A stretch of DNA of 64,000 nucleotides from assembly GCA_039028615.1 (NCBI GenBank), contig JBCCHT010000003.1, forward strand, positions 64,001 through 128,000. Reading direction: 5' to 3'. The notes below the pieces were generated by a model. It did no database searches. It was not told where the DNA came from and was given only the letters and a program-made list of their open reading frames with translations. Position numbers and translations under genes: made by a program. Of this stretch, positions 30,777 to 38,499 are shown in pieces. This DNA is from Myxococcota bacterium. GTDB lineage: Bacteria > Myxococcota_A > Polyangia > Nannocystales > Nannocystaceae. Within the stretch, counting starts at the first letter, position 1. Every line of letters begins with the position of its first letter.

Positions 30777-31099
30777 GCGCGTAGGCGCATCCCTTGCTCA
30801 TCGCGTTTTCGAGCGCCATGGGCACACCCTTCCGTCGCCGGGGATCCGTCCCTGGCGACAGTCGTTTCGAATCGTGCGCGTTCGGCGAGGCCAAACCGGC
30901 CGATCGGCTCCTGGAGGCCGTTTTCCGCCGTGGCGCGGCAAAAACGGGAGCTGGAGCACAATCGGTCGTCCGAAAGATTTCGTCGCGCCCGTAACCGTAC
31001 CGCGGCCCACGAATACTTCCGGCCATGAGCCTCGGACCCACTCTGCCGCCGTTGGATGTTTGCCCCGACTTCGCCGTGTCCGTGAGCAAGGGAGCTGCC

Positions 31100-31660
31100 A
31101 TGCCGAAAGAGCCGGTCTTCGACGACCACGACTTGCTGGTCGAAGCCATCGATCACGATCACATCCAGGGAGGCCTCTTCGACGTCTACCTCATGGTCTG
31201 GGCGGGACACGTCACCGAGGCCGCGGTCGAGTCGTTGGACGTCGGGCTTCGCCTCGCGACGGAGCGCGGCTCGGGCAGCGTCATGCTGCTCGGCGTCATC
31301 TTGCCCGGCGCGCCCATGACCATGTCTCGCGAGGCTCGCGACAAGCTGTCCGCGGTGCTGAGCAAGCACGCGGGCTCGCTGCGGGGCATCGCGATGGTCA
31401 GCGGCGGCGACACGAGCATCACCCGATGGCTGCGGAGCGGGCTGGTGTCCTCCATCGCGGTGGCGGCCAGCGGCGTCGAGCTGCGTGGCTTCGGCGACGT
31501 CGACGAGGCGCTCGTGTGGACCAGCGACCGTGCTCAAGACGTGGCGGCGACCCCCGATCGCCTCAAGGTCTCGCTCGAGGATTTCCGCGACCGTCTCGAC
31601 CGCGCCCGCAACCCCGAGGCCCCGCACGCGCGCCGCGAGACGATCATGCTTTGCTGCTGA
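31100..31660 (+). CDS. Hypothetical protein (myxobacterial STAS/SEC14-like)
   Basis: GGAG SD before ATG; alpha/beta pattern ending FGDVDEALVW. Confidence 0.65.
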   Translation: MPKEPVFDDHDLLVEAIDHDHIQGGLFDVYLMVWAGHVTEAAVESLDVGLRLATERGSGSVMLLGVILPGAPMTMSREARDKLSAVLSKHAGSLRGIAMVSGGDTSITRWLRSGLVSSIAVAASGVELRGFGDVDEALVWTSDRAQDVAATPDRLKVSLEDFRDRLDRARNPEAPHARRETIMLCC

Positions 31661-32672
31661 GCGGCTGCGTCGACCAGCACCCCAGTCGATGACCCGAAGC
31701 GTCGTCGCGGCCCAGACCGAGGTTCAGGGTGGCCGCCACGACGCTTTGCTTTTGTCGAGCGTCCTGCGCGTCCTGGGCCCGCATGTTGGGTCGTTTGTTG
31801 AGCTCGAGCAGCCAGGCCCGGTCCTGGTCGTCGAACACGAAGTCGACCCCGAAGAGCTGAAAGCAGCGGTGGGCGTGGAGCCGGCCGGCATCCAGGCGCG
31901 CCGCAGTGGCGGCGAGGGCCAGGGACGACGCCTCGATCATGCTGCGCTCGAGCGCGTCGGGATCGGCCCCCGTCGCCGCGAGGAGGGTGCGGCGTAGGCC
32001 GGGGAGATCTCGGGGGGCGTCTGCCGGCCCGGTCCAGCCATCTTGGGTGGTGGTGACCAGGGTCGAGCGCGAGGTGTCGTCGTCCCGCCAGGGATCTCGC
32101 GCGTAGACGCACTTGCCCGCGTGCAGCAGGTAGCCGTGGACTTCGTGGTGCCGAGCCACCACGACCAGGTAGCGGCGCAGGTGCATGCGGTGCCCGTGGA
32201 CGAGCCGCAGTCGCGGGACCGGGCGCTGAAGCAGGGTGAAGCCCTGCTCCGCGGCGCTGTGCAGATCGAAGGGGACGGTCGGCACGCGGATGCCCCGTCG
32301 TGCCTGGCGCGTCGGGTGCTTGAGGAACCACGACGAGCCCGCGCTCGCCTGGGCCTCGAAGCGGGCCCGGTCCGAGGGCAGATCGATCAAGAACGTCTCG
32401 GGCATGATCGTGGCCGCGCGTGCCCGCCCCAGGTGCGTGCACAGGCGAGCCCACAGGATGCGCTTGGACGCCAGCGCGTCCGCGCCCGGTACCGCTCCGA
32501 TGACGACGCCCGGCCGCGGCTTCAGGGCCCGCAGCTCGGACGATTGTCCCTTGCCCGAACGAAGAAGCACGAGGTCCGCAGCATCCGCTGCGGCCTCGTG
32601 CAGGTTTGCGTCGGCGAGCGCACGGAGCCAGGTCGACGTCAGCTCGCTCGACGCGTAGTAGGTCGCGGTCGT
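31644..32672 (-). CDS. Tubulin-tyrosine ligase (TTL/TTLL) family ATP-grasp protein; start ACG 32672 or GTG 32570
   Basis: PGADALASKRILW, IMPETFLI, WFLKHP...GI, LLQRPV, GHRMHLRRYLVV, CFQLFGVDFVFD...WLLELNKRP. Confidence 0.85.
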   Translation of the reverse strand, partial: TTATYYASSELTSTWLRALADANLHEAAADAADLVLLRSGKGQSSELRALKPRPGVVIGAVPGADALASKRILWARLCTHLGRARAATIMPETFLIDLPSDRARFEAQASAGSSWFLKHPTRQARRGIRVPTVPFDLHSAAEQGFTLLQRPVPRLRLVHGHRMHLRRYLVVVARHHEVHGYLLHAGKCVYARDPWRDDDTSRSTLVTTTQDGWTGPADAPRDLPGLRRTLLAATGADPDALERSMIEASSLALAATAARLDAGRLHAHRCFQLFGVDFVFDDQDRAWLLELNKRPNMRAQDAQDARQKQSVVAATLNLGLGRDDASGHRLGCWSTQPLSSKA

Positions 32673-32675
32673 GGC

Positions 32676-33731
32676 CTACTCCTCGATGTCCTCCTCGCCC
32701 TCGACATCCGCACTCTCGGCCCCGACCTCCTCATAGTCGAAGTCCTCGGGCGGCGGAGGTGCCGTGTCGGGCACGAAGTCGGGCGGAGGGGGAGCGGGCG
32801 GCGGAGGTGCCGAGTCGGGCACGAAGTCGGGCGGCGGATCGGTCGGCAGATCCGGTACGTCGGGAATGTCCGGCAGCAGCAGCTCCCAGTACATCCACTG
32901 GGTGGGGAACTGCACTTCCACGTGCATGGGCTGGCAGGGCTGCAGCTCGATGTCCCCGTCCTCCGGGTAGCGGTGCTCGGTCTGCGTGGCGGCATCCCAG
33001 GCGCGAATGCGGGTGGCTCCGGCCAAGGCATGGAGTTCGCTGGCCATGATGGTGCCCGTCTGCAGGGGCAGGGTGACGAGGTTGTCGCCCGGCTCGAGCA
33101 TGATCGCCATCGACTCCACCGAGGCGACCGAGCCCACCATCGAGTAGGACGACGGGTTTACCGGTACGCCCGACTGGTGCTGGACCGCCACCACTTGGCC
33201 CGGCGAAAAGGGCAGGTTCGACCACGTCTGCCACGGCCGATGTCCACTGAAGCTCTGCGAGAAGGGATTCCACGTCCACGCGGACAGGACGTTGGAGTCC
33301 ATGTCGGCGAACAGCTCGGCCGTGTTCGCGATCTGGGCGTCGAGACACAGACCAACCTTCGTGAACCCCGGGAACAGCGGGGTCGGGACCACGGCCGCGG
33401 TGGCCGAGCCGAGGTTGGGGTATGTGACGGGCGCGACCGTGTAGAACCGAGTCGTGCCGTTGTTGGCACCCTGATCGATGAAGATTCCATCATCTGTCTC
33501 CGCGATGAGGGTCGAGTCGTCGCCGCCGGGCACCGCGTTGGGGCTGTCGCTCACCCACACGGCGTCCAGATCTCCGGGAGTCGGAGTCCAGGTGAGGACG
33601 ATGTTCGTGCCGTCCTTGCTGATGTCGACGGTCTCTCCCGGGTCGATCGCGTGCGCGTTCGTTCCGTACGAGTACGCGCACAAAGCGCAAGCCGCGGCGA
33701 TCCCCAAAGGCGCCCAACGATTCGATTCCAT
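32676..33731 (-). CDS. Secreted beta-rich protein with Pro-rich stalk and alpha-tubulin-like acidic C-terminal tail
   Basis: Signal peptide ending AHA; FN3-like IVLTW...FYTV; [8 protein letters not shown] repeats; ends [20 protein letters not shown]. Confidence 0.85.
   Translation of the reverse strand: [351 protein letters not shown]
32747..32834. repeat. 40-nt direct repeat, 48-nt period, encoding PPDFVPD(S/T)APPPP
   Basis: 32747-32786 vs 32795-32834, one mismatch. Confidence 0.85.
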
Positions 33732-33800
33732 TACGTTCTCCCCCAAACAGGCCCAATCATCCGGGCCTCCACACTGGGCACCCTAACGGTCCAGTTCTGC

Positions 33801-33840
33801 ATTGAATGTATTTTGAATTACATTTAATACCATAAATAAC
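33801..33840. promoter_or_regulatory. AT-rich divergent promoter region with inverted repeat
   Basis: attgaatgtattt-tg-aattacatttaat (11 of 13 paired). Confidence 0.55.
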
Positions 33841-34041
33841 GTGTGCTTTCCCGTCATGAGTTTCTCGACAGGGACCCCCTTACAAGCGCGTGAACGCGAT
33901 TTCCCGAGTCGGGTGCGAGGCGCTGGGGCGCTCGACCGCATCGGTCGATGAAAGCCGTGCGAGAGCGACAGGGTCTCTGCTCTCACGTCGGTGCACGAGC
34001 GCCGCAGAAACTGACACGGGCCGACTCGGGTCGAAGCCGCG

Positions 34042-34929
34042 ATGTCCGAAAAGAGTGCCGAACTCGTCATCGAAGGCTTGTCCAAGACCTATCCCGGTGG
34101 AGTTCGGGCATTGCGTGGCGTCGACCTTCGCATCGCCCCCGGGATGTTCGGCCTGCTGGGTCCCAATGGCGCGGGCAAGTCCTCGCTCATGCGCACCATC
34201 GCCACGCTGCAAGAGCCCGACGAAGGCAGCATTCGCCTCGGTGAGCTCGACGTCTTGCGCGACAAAGATGCGGTCCGGGCGGTGCTCGGCTACCTGCCGC
34301 AGGACTTCGGGGTCTATCCCCATCTCGATGCGCTGTCCTTGCTCGATCACTTCGCCGTGCTCAAGGGCATCACCGCTCGCGGTCAACGAAAAGACGTCGT
34401 CGAGGCCCTGCTCAACCGGGTCAACCTCTGGGACAAGCGCAAGCAGAAGCTCGGTGGGTTTTCGGGGGGCATGCGCCAGCGCTTCGGCATCGCCCAGGCG
34501 CTGCTGGGCGATCCACGGCTGATCATCGTCGATGAGCCGACGGCGGGCCTCGACCCCCAAGAGCGCAGCCGGTTCCTGAACCTGCTGTCGGAGATCGGCG
34601 AGCACGTGGTCGTCCTGCTCTCGACCCACATCGTCGAGGACGTCGCCGACCTGTGCCTGCAGATGGCCATCATCGCAGGCGGGCAGGTGCTGCGCACGGG
34701 CCAGCCGCTCGCGGCCATCGACGAGCTCCGCGGGTGCACCTGGAAGAAGGTCATCACCAAGGACGAGCTGCCCGAGCACCGCGAGGAACATATGGTCATC
34801 TCCACCCGCCTGGTGGGCGGCCGCACCGTCATTCACGTCTTTGCCGAGGACGATCCGGGCGGGCAGTTCGCCGCCGTCGACCCCGTGCTCGAAGACGTCT
34901 ACTTCACCACCTTGGCCCACGCCGCGTAG
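34042..34929 (+). CDS. ABC transporter ATP-binding protein
   Basis: GPNGAGKS, FSGGMRQR, IIVDEPT, STH. Confidence 0.97.
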   Translation: MSEKSAELVIEGLSKTYPGGVRALRGVDLRIAPGMFGLLGPNGAGKSSLMRTIATLQEPDEGSIRLGELDVLRDKDAVRAVLGYLPQDFGVYPHLDALSLLDHFAVLKGITARGQRKDVVEALLNRVNLWDKRKQKLGGFSGGMRQRFGIAQALLGDPRLIIVDEPTAGLDPQERSRFLNLLSEIGEHVVVLLSTHIVEDVADLCLQMAIIAGGQVLRTGQPLAAIDELRGCTWKKVITKDELPEHREEHMVISTRLVGGRTVIHVFAEDDPGGQFAAVDPVLEDVYFTTLAHAA

Positions 34930-34941
34930 GGGACTTCGTTC

Positions 34942-37900
34942 ATGTTCCTCTCGTTTCTCAGTTTCGAGCTGCGGTACCGGCTGCGGCAACCCGCGGTCTA
35001 TATCTTCTCCGTCGTCTTCGCCCTGCTCACGTTCGCCGCGATCACCTCCGACGCGGTGGTCATCGGCGGCGGCGTGGGCCAGACGGCCATCAACTCGCCC
35101 TTCGTGATCACCCAGATGCTGGGGATCATGAGCGCGGTCTCGGTCATCCTCGTCACCGCCTTCGTCTCGACTGCGCTCACCCGCGACTTCGAACTGGGCA
35201 CCGACGCCCTGTTCTTCACCAAGCCGATCCGCAAGTTCGACCTGCTCGCGGGGCGCTTCGTGGGCGCGGTGCTGGTGGCCGGCATCGTGATGGTGGCCGC
35301 GGCGTTCGGGCTGATGGTGGGCTCGTTCATGCCCTGGCTCGACCCCGAGCGCTTGGTCGGGTTCTCGCTGGCGCCCTACCTGATGGCGCTTTCCGTATTC
35401 GTGCTCCCCAACTTGCTGGTGATGGGGTCGTTCTTCTTTTCCATCGCCACCCTCACCCGCCGGGTGCTGCCCGCCTATGTCGGCGTGATCGCGTTCTTCG
35501 TGATCTTCTCCGTCGCCGACTCGTTCATCTCCGATCTCGACAACGACCTCGTTGCGGCGCTGGTCGATCCCTTCGGCCTGGCCTCCCTGCAGATCTCCAC
35601 CCGCTACTGGACGGTCGCCGAGCGCAACGGCTCGCTGGTGCCGCTGACGGGGGCGCTGTGGCTCAACCGGGCGGTGTGGCTCGCCCTGGCCGCGGCCTGC
35701 TTCGCCTTCACCGTGCGGCGCTTCTCCTTTGCCGCGCGGGCACGCAAGCCCAAGAAGGCGGGGGCGCAGGCCGAGGCCTCGCGCACCGAAGCCCCGCTGG
35801 TGGTGGTGCGCCCGAACATCACGTCCAGCACCGCGCTGCACCAGCTATGGCATCAGCTGCGGGTCGAGCTGGGCACGGTGCTCCGCGGCAAGGCGTTCAT
35901 CGTCATCACGCTGTTCGGGGTGCTCAACGTGGTCGGCGGCGCGCTGGGGACCATCGACGAGGTCTTCGGCACGCCCATCCTGCCCGTCACCCACCTCATG
36001 GTGCGGGTCATCGATCAGGTCTCAGCGCTCTTCGTCATCATCGTCATCACCTTCTATGCGGGTGAGCTGGTGCATCGCGAGCGCCAGGTCGGCCTGCACG
36101 AGGTCCACGACGCCCTCCCCATGCCGGGCTGGGTCCCGCTGCTGGGCAAGCTCGGCGCGCTCACGGTGGCCGTGTTCTCGCTGCTGGTCATCGCCTCGAT
36201 GTCCGGGGTGATGATCCAGCTCTCGCAGGGCTACACCCACGTGGAGCTGCCGCTGTACGCCAAGGGGCTGTGGGGGCTGTCGCTGTCCCGCTGGGTGCTG
36301 ATCTGCGTGCTCGCCATGTTCTTCCAGGTCTTGGTCAACCACAAGTACCTGGGCTTCATGTTGATGCTGCTGTTTTACGTCTCGCAGGCGGCCCTGCCCG
36401 CGCTCGACCTGAACCACGGCTTGTATCGCTTCGGGTGGGCCCCCGGCACGCCCTACTCCGACATGAACGGCTACGGGCACTTCTTCTCGCCCGCCATGTG
36501 GTACCGCCTGTACTGGTCGGCCTTCGCGGTGGGCCTGTTGCTGGTGGCCAACCTGTTTTGGGTGCGAGGCACCGACAACCGCTTCCGCCTGCGCCTGCGC
36601 GAGGCCCGGCGTCGCACCTCGGGGCGCCAGACGGCCATGCTCGCGGTGGTGGCCGGCGTGGTCTTCGGCACCGGGGCCTTCATCTTTCACAACACGACGG
36701 TCCTCAACGAGTTCCTCACCCAGGACGACCAGCAAGCGGCGCAGGTGCGCTACGAGCAGACCTACCGCGACGAGTGGTACGGCGCGGTGCAGCCCCGGGT
36801 GACCGCGGCCGACCTCGACGTCGACATCTTCCCGCATCGGCGCGAGGTGAACATCGGCGGCACGATCACCCTGGTCAACAAGGCCGACACCCCCATCGAA
36901 AAGCTCTTCGTCACCGTCGACACCGATCTCGACGTGAAGTCGCTCGGCTTGCCCGACGAGGCGCTGCTCGAGCACGACAAAGAACTGGGCATCCGCATCT
37001 ATCGGCTCGAGCCGGCCATGGCCCCCGGGGCCACGCTGGAGTTCCCCTTCGCGCTGCACTTCTCCGAGCCGGGCTTCAAGAACAACGGCTCGAATACCGG
37101 GGTCGTCGAAAACGGCACCTTCTTCAATAGCGGCTGGGTGCCGCACTTCGGCTACGACAAGAACGTCGAGCTGCAAGATCCCAACGAGCGGCGCAAGCGA
37201 GACCTGCCCGAGCGCGAGCGGGCGCGACCCCCCACCGACATGGAGGCGCGCGCCAACACCTACCTCACCGCCGAGGGCGACTGGATCGACTTCGCCGCCA
37301 CCGTCAGCACCTCGTCCGACCAGATCGCGCTGGCGCCGGGCTACCTGACCAAGGAGTGGGAGGAGGGCGATCGGCACTACTTCCGCTACGAGATGGACGC
37401 GCCGATCCTCGACTTCTACGCGTTCCTGTCTGCCGACTACGTGGTGGCCCGCGACTCGTGGAACGACGTGGCGATCGAGGTCTACCACCATCACTCCCAC
37501 GGGATGAACGTGGCGCGGATGATCGACGCGGTGAAGAAGTCACTCGACTACTACACGACCAACTTCAGCCCCTACCAGCATCGCCAGGTTCGGATCGTCG
37601 AGTTCCCGCGCTACGCCAGCTTCGCCCAGTCCTTCCCCAACACCATCCCCTACTCGGAGAGCATCGGCTTCATCGCCGATCTCAGCGACGAGGAGCGGAT
37701 CGACTATGTGTTCTACGTGACCGCCCACGAGGTCGCCCACCAGTGGTGGGCTCACCAGGTGATCGGCGGTGACGTGCAGGGCGGCACCATGCTCTCGGAG
37801 ACCTTGTCGCAGTACTCGGCGCTCATGGTCATGGAAAAGGAGTATGGGCGCACCAAGATCGGCAAGTTCCTGAAGTACGAGCTCGACAACTACCTCGAGG

Positions 37901-38499
37901 GTCGCGGGGCGGAGTCCGAGCGCGAGCTGCCCCTGTCGCTGGTCGAAAACCAACAGTACATCCACTACAACAAGGGCAGCCTGGTCATGTATGCCCTGCG
38001 GGAGGCCATGGGCGAAGACGTGCTCAACGGCGTGCTCGCGGCCTATATCGAGGATGTCGGGTTCCAGCAGCCGCCCTTCACGGCGGCCACCGAGTTGGTC
38101 GATCGCATCCGGGCGGCGATGCCCGAGCGCTTCGACTACCTCGTGGAGGACCTGTTCGAGACCATCACGCTGTACGACAACCGGGCGGTGTCCGCGACCG
38201 CCAGCGAGACGTCCGACGGACAGTGGCAGGTCGATCTGGTACTCGACTCCCGCAAGGTCCACGCCGACGAGAAGGGCAACGAAGAAGCAGTCGCGCTCGG
38301 CGATTGGCTCGAGGTGGGGGTCTTCGGCGAGGACGAGGATGCCGAGCCGCTCTACCTGGAGTGGCACCGCATCGAGGACGAGCGCACCGAGCTGAGCGTG
38401 ACCGTGGGTGAGCGTCCGGCCCGGGCTGGCATCGACCCGCGGGTGCTCTTCGTCGACCGTGATTCCGATGACAACGTTCGTCGGGTCGACATCCCATGA
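34942..38499 (+). CDS. ABC-2 type permease fused to M1-family aminopeptidase
   Basis: Two permease halves, then HEVAHQWW...LSE and YIHYNKG. Confidence 0.92.
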   Translation: MFLSFLSFELRYRLRQPAVYIFSVVFALLTFAAITSDAVVIGGGVGQTAINSPFVITQMLGIMSAVSVILVTAFVSTALTRDFELGTDALFFTKPIRKFDLLAGRFVGAVLVAGIVMVAAAFGLMVGSFMPWLDPERLVGFSLAPYLMALSVFVLPNLLVMGSFFFSIATLTRRVLPAYVGVIAFFVIFSVADSFISDLDNDLVAALVDPFGLASLQISTRYWTVAERNGSLVPLTGALWLNRAVWLALAAACFAFTVRRFSFAARARKPKKAGAQAEASRTEAPLVVVRPNITSSTALHQLWHQLRVELGTVLRGKAFIVITLFGVLNVVGGALGTIDEVFGTPILPVTHLMVRVIDQVSALFVIIVITFYAGELVHRERQVGLHEVHDALPMPGWVPLLGKLGALTVAVFSLLVIASMSGVMIQLSQGYTHVELPLYAKGLWGLSLSRWVLICVLAMFFQVLVNHKYLGFMLMLLFYVSQAALPALDLNHGLYRFGWAPGTPYSDMNGYGHFFSPAMWYRLYWSAFAVGLLLVANLFWVRGTDNRFRLRLREARRRTSGRQTAMLAVVAGVVFGTGAFIFHNTTVLNEFLTQDDQQAAQVRYEQTYRDEWYGAVQPRVTAADLDVDIFPHRREVNIGGTITLVNKADTPIEKLFVTVDTDLDVKSLGLPDEALLEHDKELGIRIYRLEPAMAPGATLEFPFALHFSEPGFKNNGSNTGVVENGTFFNSGWVPHFGYDKNVELQDPNERRKRDLPERERARPPTDMEARANTYLTAEGDWIDFAATVSTSSDQIALAPGYLTKEWEEGDRHYFRYEMDAPILDFYAFLSADYVVARDSWNDVAIEVYHHHSHGMNVARMIDAVKKSLDYYTTNFSPYQHRQVRIVEFPRYASFAQSFPNTIPYSESIGFIADLSDEERIDYVFYVTAHEVAHQWWAHQVIGGDVQGGTMLSETLSQYSALMVMEKEYGRTKIGKFLKYELDNYLEGRGAESERELPLSLVENQQYIHYNKGSLVMYALREAMGEDVLNGVLAAYIEDVGFQQPPFTAATELVDRIRAAMPERFDYLVEDLFETITLYDNRAVSATASETSDGQWQVDLVLDSRKVHADEKGNEEAVALGDWLEVGVFGEDEDAEPLYLEWHRIEDERTELSVTVGERPARAGIDPRVLFVDRDSDDNVRRVDIP

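Follow-up and report, generated by a model that had tools for sequence, protein, structure and literature searches.

In a 64,000-nucleotide stretch of DNA from a marine bacterium of the phylum Myxococcota (the window), we find two neighbouring genes, the first of which encodes a putatively exported protein that ends in a copy of an alpha-tubulin C-terminal tail, and the second a ligase of the TTL/TTLL family. We lean towards reading the pair as a ligase–substrate cassette whose product is exported and mimics the tubulin tail of a euglenozoan. A wider proposal, which we put forward only tentatively, is that several bacterial groups export proteins bearing grafts of the modification hot spots of euglenozoan alpha-tubulin (C-terminal tail, helix H12 and, in some, the K40 acetylation loop), and that in some of these bacteria a TTL/TTLL-type ligase of their own writes on the tail in advance. 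This would be cross-kingdom mimicry of the tubulin code, directed at the readers and writers of protist grazers or hosts. The features of the locus are as follows.

32676–33731, minus strand: tail protein P0001, 351 aa, with an ATG start at 33731
32676–33746, minus strand: longer open reading frame of the tail protein, with a TTG start, 356 aa
33648–33731, minus strand: ATG start and predicted Sec signal peptide, residues 1–28, judged by eye
32877–33644, minus strand: predicted extracellular scaffold of folded beta domains, the first of them FN3-like, residues ~30–285
32739–32876, minus strand: Pro-rich spacer (stalk) with a PPPDFVPD(S/T)APPPP repeat, from the translation
32679–32738, minus strand: copy of an alpha-tubulin C-terminal tail, 20 aa, equivalent to tubulin residues 431–450 without the terminal Tyr
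32676–32678, minus strand: TAG stop of the tail gene
32571–32675, minus strand: 35 codons for the N-terminal domain of the ligase, containing no ATG, GTG or TTG (GC3, BLASTP and model)
31644–32570, minus strand: TTL/TTLL-family ATP-grasp ligase, 308 aa counted from GTG (Pfam TTL PF03133)

The original prediction described the first gene product as a secreted protein with beta domains, a proline stalk and a tubulin-like tail, and both the translation and the structure model bear out this architecture. Read by eye, the signal peptide consists of MESNR, a hydrophobic run and then AHA/IDPG, and the A-x-A/IDPG junction is common to P0001 and its homologue P0002. In the AlphaFold model, pLDDT is below 50 over residues 1–29 and mostly above 90 over the beta domains (residues ~35–285), while the stalk and tail are disordered, with the spacer at pLDDT 53–70. 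Foldseek matches the scaffold to FN3 arrays (E 4e-5 to 1e-3, low TM). Outside the tail, the protein (in its 356-aa form) matches no Pfam family and nothing in NCBIfam, and is therefore not a tubulin, in agreement with what had been claimed; the alpha-tubulin GTPase and C-terminal domains are absent from it, and only residues 332–351 match tubulin. The same scaffold module stands at the head of a paralogue family whose C-terminal parts are highly variable, and the stalk is ~48 nt shorter in a relative from another sample. The pair does not have the form of a RiPP system: the putative substrate is a 351-aa folded protein with a signal peptide, and the ligase has no PqqD match in Pfam. A promoter and terminator scan of 31300–34200 gave no promoter-like sites and a single terminator-like site on the wrong strand, no more than shuffled sequences gave. 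Named members of the clusters are all annotated “hypothetical protein”, and an Atlas search with the N-terminal part of P0012 was set aside, its score of 0.80 being at chance level.

The tail itself is supported as specifically alpha-tubulin by sequence comparison. When the last 28 aa were searched against PDB sequences with phmmer, 21 sequences were returned at E<=10 and all 21 were alpha-tubulins, a likeness that goes beyond mere acidity; the top match was 9e2g_AA, residues 430–450, at E 3.7e-4. The resemblance to Trypanosoma brucei that the original prediction put forward is confirmed by the T. brucei alpha-tubulin tail printed, with a (Y) end, in bioRxiv 10.1101/2025.02.06.636787: 17 of 20 residues are identical, and only the final Tyr is missing. 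These matches support a euglenozoan (T. brucei-type) sequence as the nearest.

The adjoining gene had been assigned to the TTL-family ATP-grasp enzymes, an assignment that holds: it matches Pfam TTL PF03133 at E 6.9e-18 (65.3 bits against a cut-off of 20.1), and the corresponding ligases of G105 and G101 reach 78.2 and 49.7 bits. Its model (pLDDT 81, pTM 0.85) has the three-domain TTL fold with its cleft, and the top Foldseek matches are TTLL7 (4ylr), TTLL6 (6vz*) and TTL, at E 1e-14 to 7e-17 and TM 0.66–0.77. Within the family its placement depends on the method. A single-sequence PDB search puts TTL first (E 3.6e-6) and TTLL3 at 0.004, the profile of the bacterial subfamily ranks TTLL6 (1.2e-15) above TTLL7 (3.2e-14) and TTL (1.2e-10), and the fold scores for TTL and TTLL6/7 are equal. 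The Arg of the FDIR strand, which by alignment we take to be TTL R202, presumably holds the substrate carboxylate. In an alignment to TTL 305–338, a D, E, N and P of the ligase fall opposite TTL D318, E331, N333 and P336, residues whose roles are set out in the portion of PMC3563685 used here. These four residues and the Arg are invariant in six bacterial members, and with its catalytic residues intact the ligase looks active, as judged from the alignment. Searches with the ligase alignment returned nothing among genome contigs and two distant loci among metagenome contigs (L026 and L027), the former AT-rich; neither entered the comparisons. The genome has a second TTL-family gene (L001, on contig C16), which, like its orthologs in G002 and G053, has no acidic-tailed neighbour and was set apart as a different system.

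The reading frame of the ligase opens at the codon right after the TAG of the tail gene, in the same frame, and no canonical start codon precedes its N-terminal domain. The last two Glu codons form an AGGAG-like run that precedes an ACG by 6 nt; near-cognate initiation there, read-through of the stop codon and a start at the GTG are candidate routes to the enzyme. Several observations mark the 35 codons at 32571–32675 as coding: their GC3 is 0.86, versus 0.56–0.60 for true intergenic DNA; a BLASTP alignment to the G744 ligase (E 9e-40) begins at residue 5 of the stretch; and model pLDDT over it is 85–92. Scored with an HMM built from four distant ligases' N-termini, the 35 codons did no better than shuffles (650 of 2000 scored as high or higher), a result superseded by the alignment to the closer G744 ligase. 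On the other side of the stop codon, a 3-base insertion in the X2/X3 relative puts a Phe codon directly before TAG. The window tail ends in -EE and the orthologous X3 tail would end in -EEF; what sets them apart is just an aromatic end residue of the kind with which TTL extends tubulin in eukaryotes, an indirect hint at a TTL-like addition. Since the encoded tails of G105, G744 and the X3 relative already end in Tyr or Phe, tyrosination is not required there.

The pairing of tail and ligase recurs in other bacteria. In G744, which belongs to the window’s phylum and to another family, a tail gene is followed by a ligase gene on the same strand after a gap of 52 nt, and the pairing that the original prediction had proposed to look for elsewhere in the phylum is therefore found. 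In G105, a Bacteroidota single-cell genome, the same order and strand occur with a gap of 103 nt, and in G194 an ortholog of the G105 protein with a degenerate acidic tail (...EGDEDFEEDVEEL) adjoins a ligase. G101 and G892 have both ligase and tail, on different contigs. The tail-then-ligase order is thus kept on three mutually unrelated carrier proteins, and this recurrence in other bacteria is our reason for regarding ligase and tail as functionally linked, as had been suggested. The ligase type is rare: the sets that were searched have it in 2/81, 4/301, 2/401 and 6/201 genomes. About 6–7 of the 12 ligase-bearing genomes checked for tails hold one, adjacent to the ligase in five, and six ligase-bearing genomes (G116, G198, G199, G889, G956 and G975) have neither a tubulin-like tail nor an adjacent gene with an acidic tail. 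Conversely, no ligase was found in five of the seven other tail-bearing genomes (G102, G103, G104, G107 and G108). With ligase-only and tail-only genomes both present, neither partner strictly needs the other.

The case first noticed is one instance of something more widespread. A DNA pattern scan combined with a profile search, the latter positive for 1110 clusters, finds this tail in several groups of bacteria, on unrelated proteins with signal peptides, and all of the tail proteins are predicted, from their signal peptides, to be exported. The tail grafts are often lengthened by tubulin helix H12; the last 40 aa of L035, for example, match tubulin 412–450 at E 1.5e-13. Three tail proteins additionally have the K40 loop, and in P0023 and the G744 protein this segment matches tubulin 29–57 at E 1e-7 to 1e-8. 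Twelve of the 21 pattern matches in genome contigs lie within unrelated frames and were treated as chance, and viral contigs gave no matches to the tail pattern. The tail amino acids are near-invariant across hosts of 32–72% GC and the codons track host GC. That the grafts are almost letter-perfect across such hosts implies a eukaryotic partner that reads the sequence. Euglenozoans are major bacterivores, and the reader is most likely to be found among them (kinetoplastids, diplonemids, euglenids).

Structure prediction of the complex weakly favours binding of the tail by the ligase. The pair scored 0.49 (0.81, 0.01 and 0.49 in three runs), versus 0.01 for the best of three controls; at least 40% of contacts are common to the runs, and partner pLDDT is at least 35. 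Of 157 solved complexes, 116 reach the mark applied, as do 2 of 215 mismatched pairs; at scores of 0.60 or below, the range of the present score, only 18 of the 157 solved complexes passed, and both of the passing mismatches lie there. Because TTL–tubulin complexes have already been solved, the pass may reflect structures already known to the predictor.

In the mechanism we propose, the first gene product would be a Sec-exported beta-sandwich scaffold displaying, at the end of a flexible Pro stalk, a tail copy that was acquired horizontally from a euglenozoan-type alpha-tubulin. The second gene product has no signal peptide and is therefore presumably cytoplasmic; it would use ATP to add at least one amino acid to this tail, probably before export is complete. 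With the substrate exported and the enzyme not, only a short time would be available for the two to meet. What is added might be an aromatic residue, joined to the terminal -EE, or else glutamates, joined to side chains of Glu residues in the tail; once exported, the protein would display a tubulin tail fixed in one defined state of the tubulin code. Outside the cell, such a tail might imitate the protist’s own and, one step further, might engage or jam the proteins that read or write it. The original prediction of a captured tubulin tail with a dedicated enzyme stands in part: the alpha-tubulin identity of the tail, its closeness to the euglenozoan type and its link to the ligase hold, and the added amino acid (Tyr/Phe or Glu) and the ecological role are what we infer.

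Could the tail be an artefact, or of no consequence? An assembly chimera or eukaryotic contamination has a counterpart in our own searches, where one pattern match in a Verrucomicrobiota MAG (L042) looks eukaryotic; it has a tubulin fragment beside a LINE-like endonuclease/reverse-transcriptase ORF and was dropped as probable contamination. We give this explanation practically no credence for the window, which lies within a contig of at least 128 kb (bases 64001–128000 of contig C3), the longest contig bearing P0001 having 517,631 bases. The assembly was checked with contigs, as the original prediction had advised for spanning reads, and no chimera appeared: an independent Logan assembly of the source run covers 31400–34000 with 0 differences, and a 2230-nt contig from another study (X3, ~85–88% nucleotide identity, ligase P0159) spans the downstream ORF, the ligase, the stop junction, the tail and the stalk. 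The GC3 of the tail (0.86) equals that of host genes, and its codons match host usage. P0002, only 52% identical overall, retains 17 aa of the tail, which is also conserved in seven other bacterial genomes. Over eight bacterial loci, the GC3 of the tail follows the host, with AT-rich hosts at the low end (0.12) and GC-rich hosts at the high end (0.88), and the 17 shared residues show 0–3 amino-acid differences, yet up to 18 of 51 bases differ. These comparisons show the tail to be native to the genome and, as judged from its codons, its amino-acid sequence to be under selection. They bear equally on the idea that the tail is an evolutionarily neutral leftover, or an acidic disordered end of a generic kind unconnected with tubulin, and that the ligase lies next to it by coincidence. 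Acidic disordered tails are common, and the window tail alone reaches only the E-value given above against the PDB; but changes between hosts are mostly synonymous, relatives have longer tubulin segments, and the adjacency to the ligase recurs, so that this idea, already disfavoured, appears very improbable.

The remaining alternatives accept the tail and dispute its relation to the ligase or to tubulin. The locus might be an island with two separate anti-eukaryote tools, a ligase that is delivered into the protist and acts on the protist’s alpha-tubulin, and a tail protein that serves as an independent, unmodified mimic or decoy; adjacency would then reflect co-regulation or joint transfer. 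The ligase-only and tail-only genomes are in keeping with such independence, as is the presence of a Sec signal on the tail protein and not on the ligase, and a host-directed role has been proposed for TTL-domain proteins of Legionella (PMC4256840). However, three unrelated carriers share this order and strand, the ligase shows no sign of a secretion signal or of a delivery system, and the complex prediction lends weak support to tail binding, and we consider two independent tools unlikely. Less probable still, in our view, is a purely bacterial form of tail tagging, in which the ligase extends an acidic C-terminus for charge, metal binding, adhesion or release of a modified peptide, and the likeness to tubulin means only that such a sequence is a good TTL-type substrate. 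The RimK–S6 precedent fits this, the ligase neighbour in G194 retains merely a generic acidic tail, and the Atlas offers a lead in a bacterial cluster whose TTL domains are fused to peptide-recognition domains of the PqqD type. Against it, the amino acids are near-invariant over hosts of widely different GC, helix H12 and the K40 loop are co-grafted though they are not ligase sites, and all of the tail proteins appear to be exported.

Eukaryotes and giant viruses are regarded as the domain of tubulin tails and of the TTL/TTLL enzymes that write on them. Here, both tail and writer are neighbouring genes of one marine bacterium in which no tubulin was found, and the recurrence of the pairing in unrelated bacteria points to an undescribed bacterial imitation of eukaryotic microtubule signals. 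In a full-text literature search of a library with few subscription papers, no account of tubulin tails on bacterial proteins came up. The pair offers a minimal, genetically linked enzyme and putative substrate, of value because the substrate rules of this family are difficult to work out on microtubules. If a eukaryotic partner does read the grafts, these genes would be bacterial factors of a new, protist-directed class and a metagenome marker for such interactions, and if pre-writing in particular is true, TTL-family enzymes would have natural, genetically paired, non-tubulin substrates in bacteria.

Compared with the eukaryotic tubulin code, the window has the same substrate sequence (17/20 to the T. 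brucei tail), enzyme family, fold and catalytic residues. It differs in that the tail sits on an exported FN3-like scaffold without a tubulin body, the enzyme is shorter (~340 aa), and enzyme and substrate are neighbouring bacterial genes. It also differs in that the four genomes searched (G000, G101, G105 and G116) gave no detyrosinase (MATCAP PF08014, Vasohibin PF14822) and no CAP-Gly reader (PF01302), nor Tubulin_C (PF03953), all weak negatives in that the control genomes were silent too. RimK, a bacterial ATP-grasp ligase, adds Glu to the C-terminal -EE of ribosomal protein S6, and the window likewise pairs an ATP-grasp ligase with a genetically encoded acidic C-terminus; in contrast to RimK–S6, the enzyme belongs to another Pfam family (in the G105 ligase, RimK PF08443 is sub-threshold only, at E 0.0037 and 17.3 bits against a cut-off of 21), and the substrate would be exported and copied from a eukaryote. 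The Legionella TTL-domain proteins such as Llo2200 are, in the sections of PMC4256840 drawn on here, “eukaryotic-like” orphan enzymes presumed to act on host tubulin; they share with the window a bacterial TTL-family gene thought to be of eukaryotic origin, whereas those sections report no partner bearing a tubulin tail. BtubA/B of Prosthecobacter, as far as the consulted part of PMC5372463 describes them, are a further case of horizontal acquisition of tubulin sequence by bacteria and are whole tubulins that polymerise inside the cell, whereas here only surface pieces of 17–53 residues (tail, H12 and K40 loop) are borne by proteins that are predicted to be secreted.

The gene pair encodes an exported scaffold bearing a selected, euglenozoan-type tubulin tail and an intact adjoining TTL/TTLL-family ligase, and the pair recurs in other genomes. 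The two ORFs are as follows:

33746 (TTG) or 33731 (ATG; P0001, 351 aa) to TAG at 32676–32678, minus strand: tail-protein ORF, by translation
31644–32570, minus strand: ligase ORF, by Pfam TTL match

P0001, the tail protein, begins with MESNR, a hydrophobic run, and an AHA/IDPG junction, which we judged by eye to be a Sec-type signal peptide. In an AlphaFold prediction that drew on 18 relatives, residues ~35–285 form confident beta domains (pLDDT mostly >90), while the 46-residue proline stalk and the tail (the final 20 residues) are of low confidence. Foldseek matched the model to FN3-domain arrays only (E 4e-5 to 1e-3, low TM), and a Pfam and NCBIfam scan of the protein found no family, which agrees with the original prediction that the rest of the protein is not tubulin. 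The FN3-like N-terminal module (32877–33644, minus strand) stands at the head of a paralogue family (L005–L023), and as many as 12 matches occur in a single genome of the genus. Its C-terminal “payloads” following a PPP linker are highly varied (Kazal-like Cys motifs, EGF-like repeats, Rhs-like regions, and beta-propeller-like parts), and the tubulin tail of P0001 sits in this payload position. Elsewhere in the window, an ABC ATPase gene (34042–34929) directly precedes a single 1185-aa ORF (34942–38499, plus strand) that fuses ABC-2 type permease domains and an M1 peptidase domain.

When the last 28 residues were searched against all PDB sequences (phmmer, E ≤ 10), 21 sequences were returned and 21/21 were alpha-tubulins, the best being 9e2g_AA residues 430–450 (E 3.7e-4). 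The tail of this chain is the T. brucei peptide ending (Y) that is printed in the accessible part of bioRxiv 10.1101/2025.02.06.636787; against that peptide, the T. brucei sequence given in the original prediction, its 17/20 identity to the window tail, and the absence of the final Tyr from the latter all hold. Since eukaryotic fragments with the identical 12-residue ending occur in the same protein library (P0011, P0014, P0019, and P0021), the donor-type tubulin is real.

Similar tails are found in other bacteria. The back-translated pattern EVGAESAD[VIM][DE], run over 185,579 prokaryote species with a single genome for each, matched 21 places, nine of which are ORF ends with further similarity, of the form (EFSEAREDLAALEK) + 20 residues + (Y). 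Two of the nine are duplicates within one MAG. Another, L042 on a Verrucomicrobiota MAG contig, was set aside as probable eukaryotic contamination: it is an alpha-tubulin C-terminal fragment beside a 1568-aa LINE-like endonuclease/reverse-transcriptase ORF, and it is evidence that precisely this 12-residue ending exists in a eukaryote. This leaves seven bacterial genomes, labeled Bacteroidetes, Bacteroidota (single-cell genome), Balneolaceae, Deltaproteobacteria, Rhodobacterales, “proteobacterium”, and, doubtfully, Enterobacteriaceae, and a signal-peptide-like start is present in 7/7 of the proteins. The last label (uncultured Enterobacteriaceae, locus L035) looks wrong; this MAG locus has 71% GC, MopE-type metal-binding repeats, and Lcl_C and Dictyostelium-repeat neighbors. 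The last 40 residues of the L035 protein match tubulin 412–450 at E 1.5e-13.

A tail profile searched against 1.84 billion representative proteins gave 1110 clusters at E ≤ 0.001. We classified 151 sequences, namely 149 of the 150 listed clusters, P0001, and its homologue P0002; 65 have tubulin-core motifs upstream and were taken as eukaryotic tubulin fragments, and roughly 20 have a signal peptide, often together with an N-terminal V-x-V-C-H...H-G-D motif. P0023, P0039, and the protein of G744 (L069 1474–2934; a genome of the window’s phylum but another family) also carry tubulin residues ~29–57, the loop in which the K40 acetylation site lies (E 1e-7 to 1e-8), and their nearest match is again the T. 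brucei-type chain. In P0023, residues ~29–57 are spliced straight onto residues ~407–451. A short N-terminal module common to many tail proteins, (K)V-x-V/I-C-H ... A-x-x-A-H-x-x-H-G-D, follows the signal peptide (loci L032, L035, L036, L039, L045, and L069; proteins P0012, P0027, P0032, P0053, P0057, P0090, and P0151), and a Pfam scan of nine tail proteins, six of them with this module, found no family over it.

The window locus of tail and ligase is not an artefact, an explanation that we regard as next to impossible. The window (bases 64001–128000 of its contig) belongs to a 12.27 Mb genome (completeness 96.7%, contamination 1.8%). The tail has the GC3 of both genes (0.86), and true intergenic DNA (33747–34041) has a GC3 of 0.56–0.60 in every frame. 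P0002 (370 aa, another assembly, 52% identical) ends in a matching 21-residue tail sequence. The probable source run is X1, a marine metagenome, whose Logan assembly covers 31400–34000 with 0 differences, and X2/X3, a biofilm metagenome from another study, hold a relative at roughly 85–88% nucleotide identity, with one 2230-nt contig spanning the downstream ORF, ligase (P0159 in X3), stop junction, tail, and start of the stalk; the support from these runs is in assembled contigs, not raw reads. That the tail is instead a neutral remnant is very improbable. Over 17 shared codons, eight bacterial loci show 0–3 residue differences against up to 18/51 base differences, and the GC3 of the tails spans 0.12–0.88, lowest in AT-rich and highest in GC-rich hosts, so the grafts have adapted to their individual host genomes with hardly any change in the peptide.

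The ligase frame is that of the tail gene and opens at the codon immediately after the TAG, and the 35 codons ahead of its listed GTG (32571–32675, minus strand) contain no ATG, GTG, or TTG. These codons have a coding-type GC3 (0.86) and in the ligase model form the initial strand-helix-strand of the N domain (pLDDT 85–92). Starting at their fifth residue, they can be aligned by BLASTP (38% identity, E 9e-40) to the N-terminus of the G744 ligase, for which a start codon is present; a test before that alignment, against an HMM of more distant ligases, was not significant. Taken together, these features place the ligase’s true N-terminus within about four codons of the tail-gene stop. An AGGAG-like run made up of the tail’s last pair of Glu codons lies 6 nt ahead of an ACG codon, and the ligase may start by near-cognate initiation, re-initiation after termination, or read-through. 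In the X3 relative, read with the window’s flanking letters, a 3-base insertion at the stop places a Phe codon right before the TAG, so the orthologous tails end in -EE (window) and -EEF (X3). Its proline stalk is ~48 nt shorter. A 211-aa ORF without family (31025–31660, plus strand) is convergent with the ligase gene, overlaps its end by 17 nt, and is conserved in the X2/X3 relative at ~87% nucleotide identity.

The predicted ligase scores 65.3 bits (E 6.9e-18) with the Pfam TTL profile, whose cut-off is 20.1. Its model, built on six bacterial relatives (pLDDT 81, pTM 0.85), superposes on TTLL7, TTLL6, and TTL at TM 0.66–0.77 (Foldseek). In an alignment to TTL 305–338, its Asp, Glu, Asn, and Pro fall on D318, E331, N333, and P336; according to PMC3563685, D318 and E331 bind the pair of magnesium ions, and P336 is in contact with the tail. 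All six bacterial members keep these four residues, as well as the FDIR-strand Arg, without change, so the enzyme looks active. TTL ranked first in a single-sequence PDB search, and with a bacterial-subfamily profile TTLL6 (1.2e-15) and TTLL7 (3.2e-14) came ahead of TTL (1.2e-10). The window’s genome, G000, also encodes another TTL-family member of more canonical type (contig C16 117850–118680, L001; Pfam 116 bits), syntenic with an aminotransferase-like gene in G002 and G053 (L059 and L060) and with no acidic-tailed neighbor seen; this gene probably belongs to a different system.

The ligase type is rare: it occurs in 2/81 relatives of G101, 4/301 relatives of G105 (the Bacteroidota single-cell genome), 2/401 genomes of the window’s phylum, and 6/201 relatives of G744, and is carried by 12 genomes in all plus the X3 relative. 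In G000, the X3 relative, G105, and G744, a tubulin-type tail gene adjoins it on the same strand, tail gene first. The G105 tail protein (108 aa) ends ...EGEGDEEEY, 103 nt from the ligase, and that of G744 (486 aa) has the K40 loop, tubulin helix H12, and tail, with a 52-nt gap. In G194, an ortholog of the G105 protein with a degenerate acidic tail (...EGDEDFEEDVEEL) adjoins the ligase. The three carrier types (FN3-like, small CH...HGD protein, and large CH...HGD protein with MopE-like repeats) are mutually unrelated, so the tail and ligase are what travel together. Among the ligase-bearing genomes surveyed, all but G977, the tail lies elsewhere in G101 and in G892 (at the 20-residue end of a large protein) and was not found in G116, G198, G199, G889, G956, and G975; the ligase was not found in 5/7 pattern-positive genomes. 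The link is thus strong but not obligatory, and it is unlikely that the ligase and tail protein are independent effectors. Complex prediction for ligase, tail, ATP, and Mg scored 0.49 (runs 0.81, 0.01, and 0.49; best control 0.01), with runs sharing at least 40% of contacts and partner pLDDT at least 35. The mark was reached by 116/157 solved complexes and 2/215 mismatches; at scores ≤0.60, only 18/157 solved complexes passed, and both passing mismatches are in that range. This lends weak support to predicted binding, and the pass may reflect already solved TTL-tubulin complexes.

We propose that the cytoplasmic ligase would charge the tail carboxylate using ATP, and would then add a terminal aromatic residue or side-chain glutamates before export finishes; once exported, the tail might imitate that of protist tubulin. 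A purely bacterial tagging system is a still more doubtful explanation than independent effectors. Because all tail proteins appear to be exported, and H12 and the K40 loop were co-grafted though a ligase would have no need of them, we argue that the ultimate target would be a eukaryotic reader.

In the literature searched, we found no tubulin-tail grafts on secreted bacterial proteins and no pairing with a ligase, and neither is described in the cluster annotations, in which every named member is a “hypothetical protein”. Among bacteria, TTL-domain genes are already known from Legionella (PMC4256840), and Prosthecobacter is known to have tubulins of full extent (PMC5372463).
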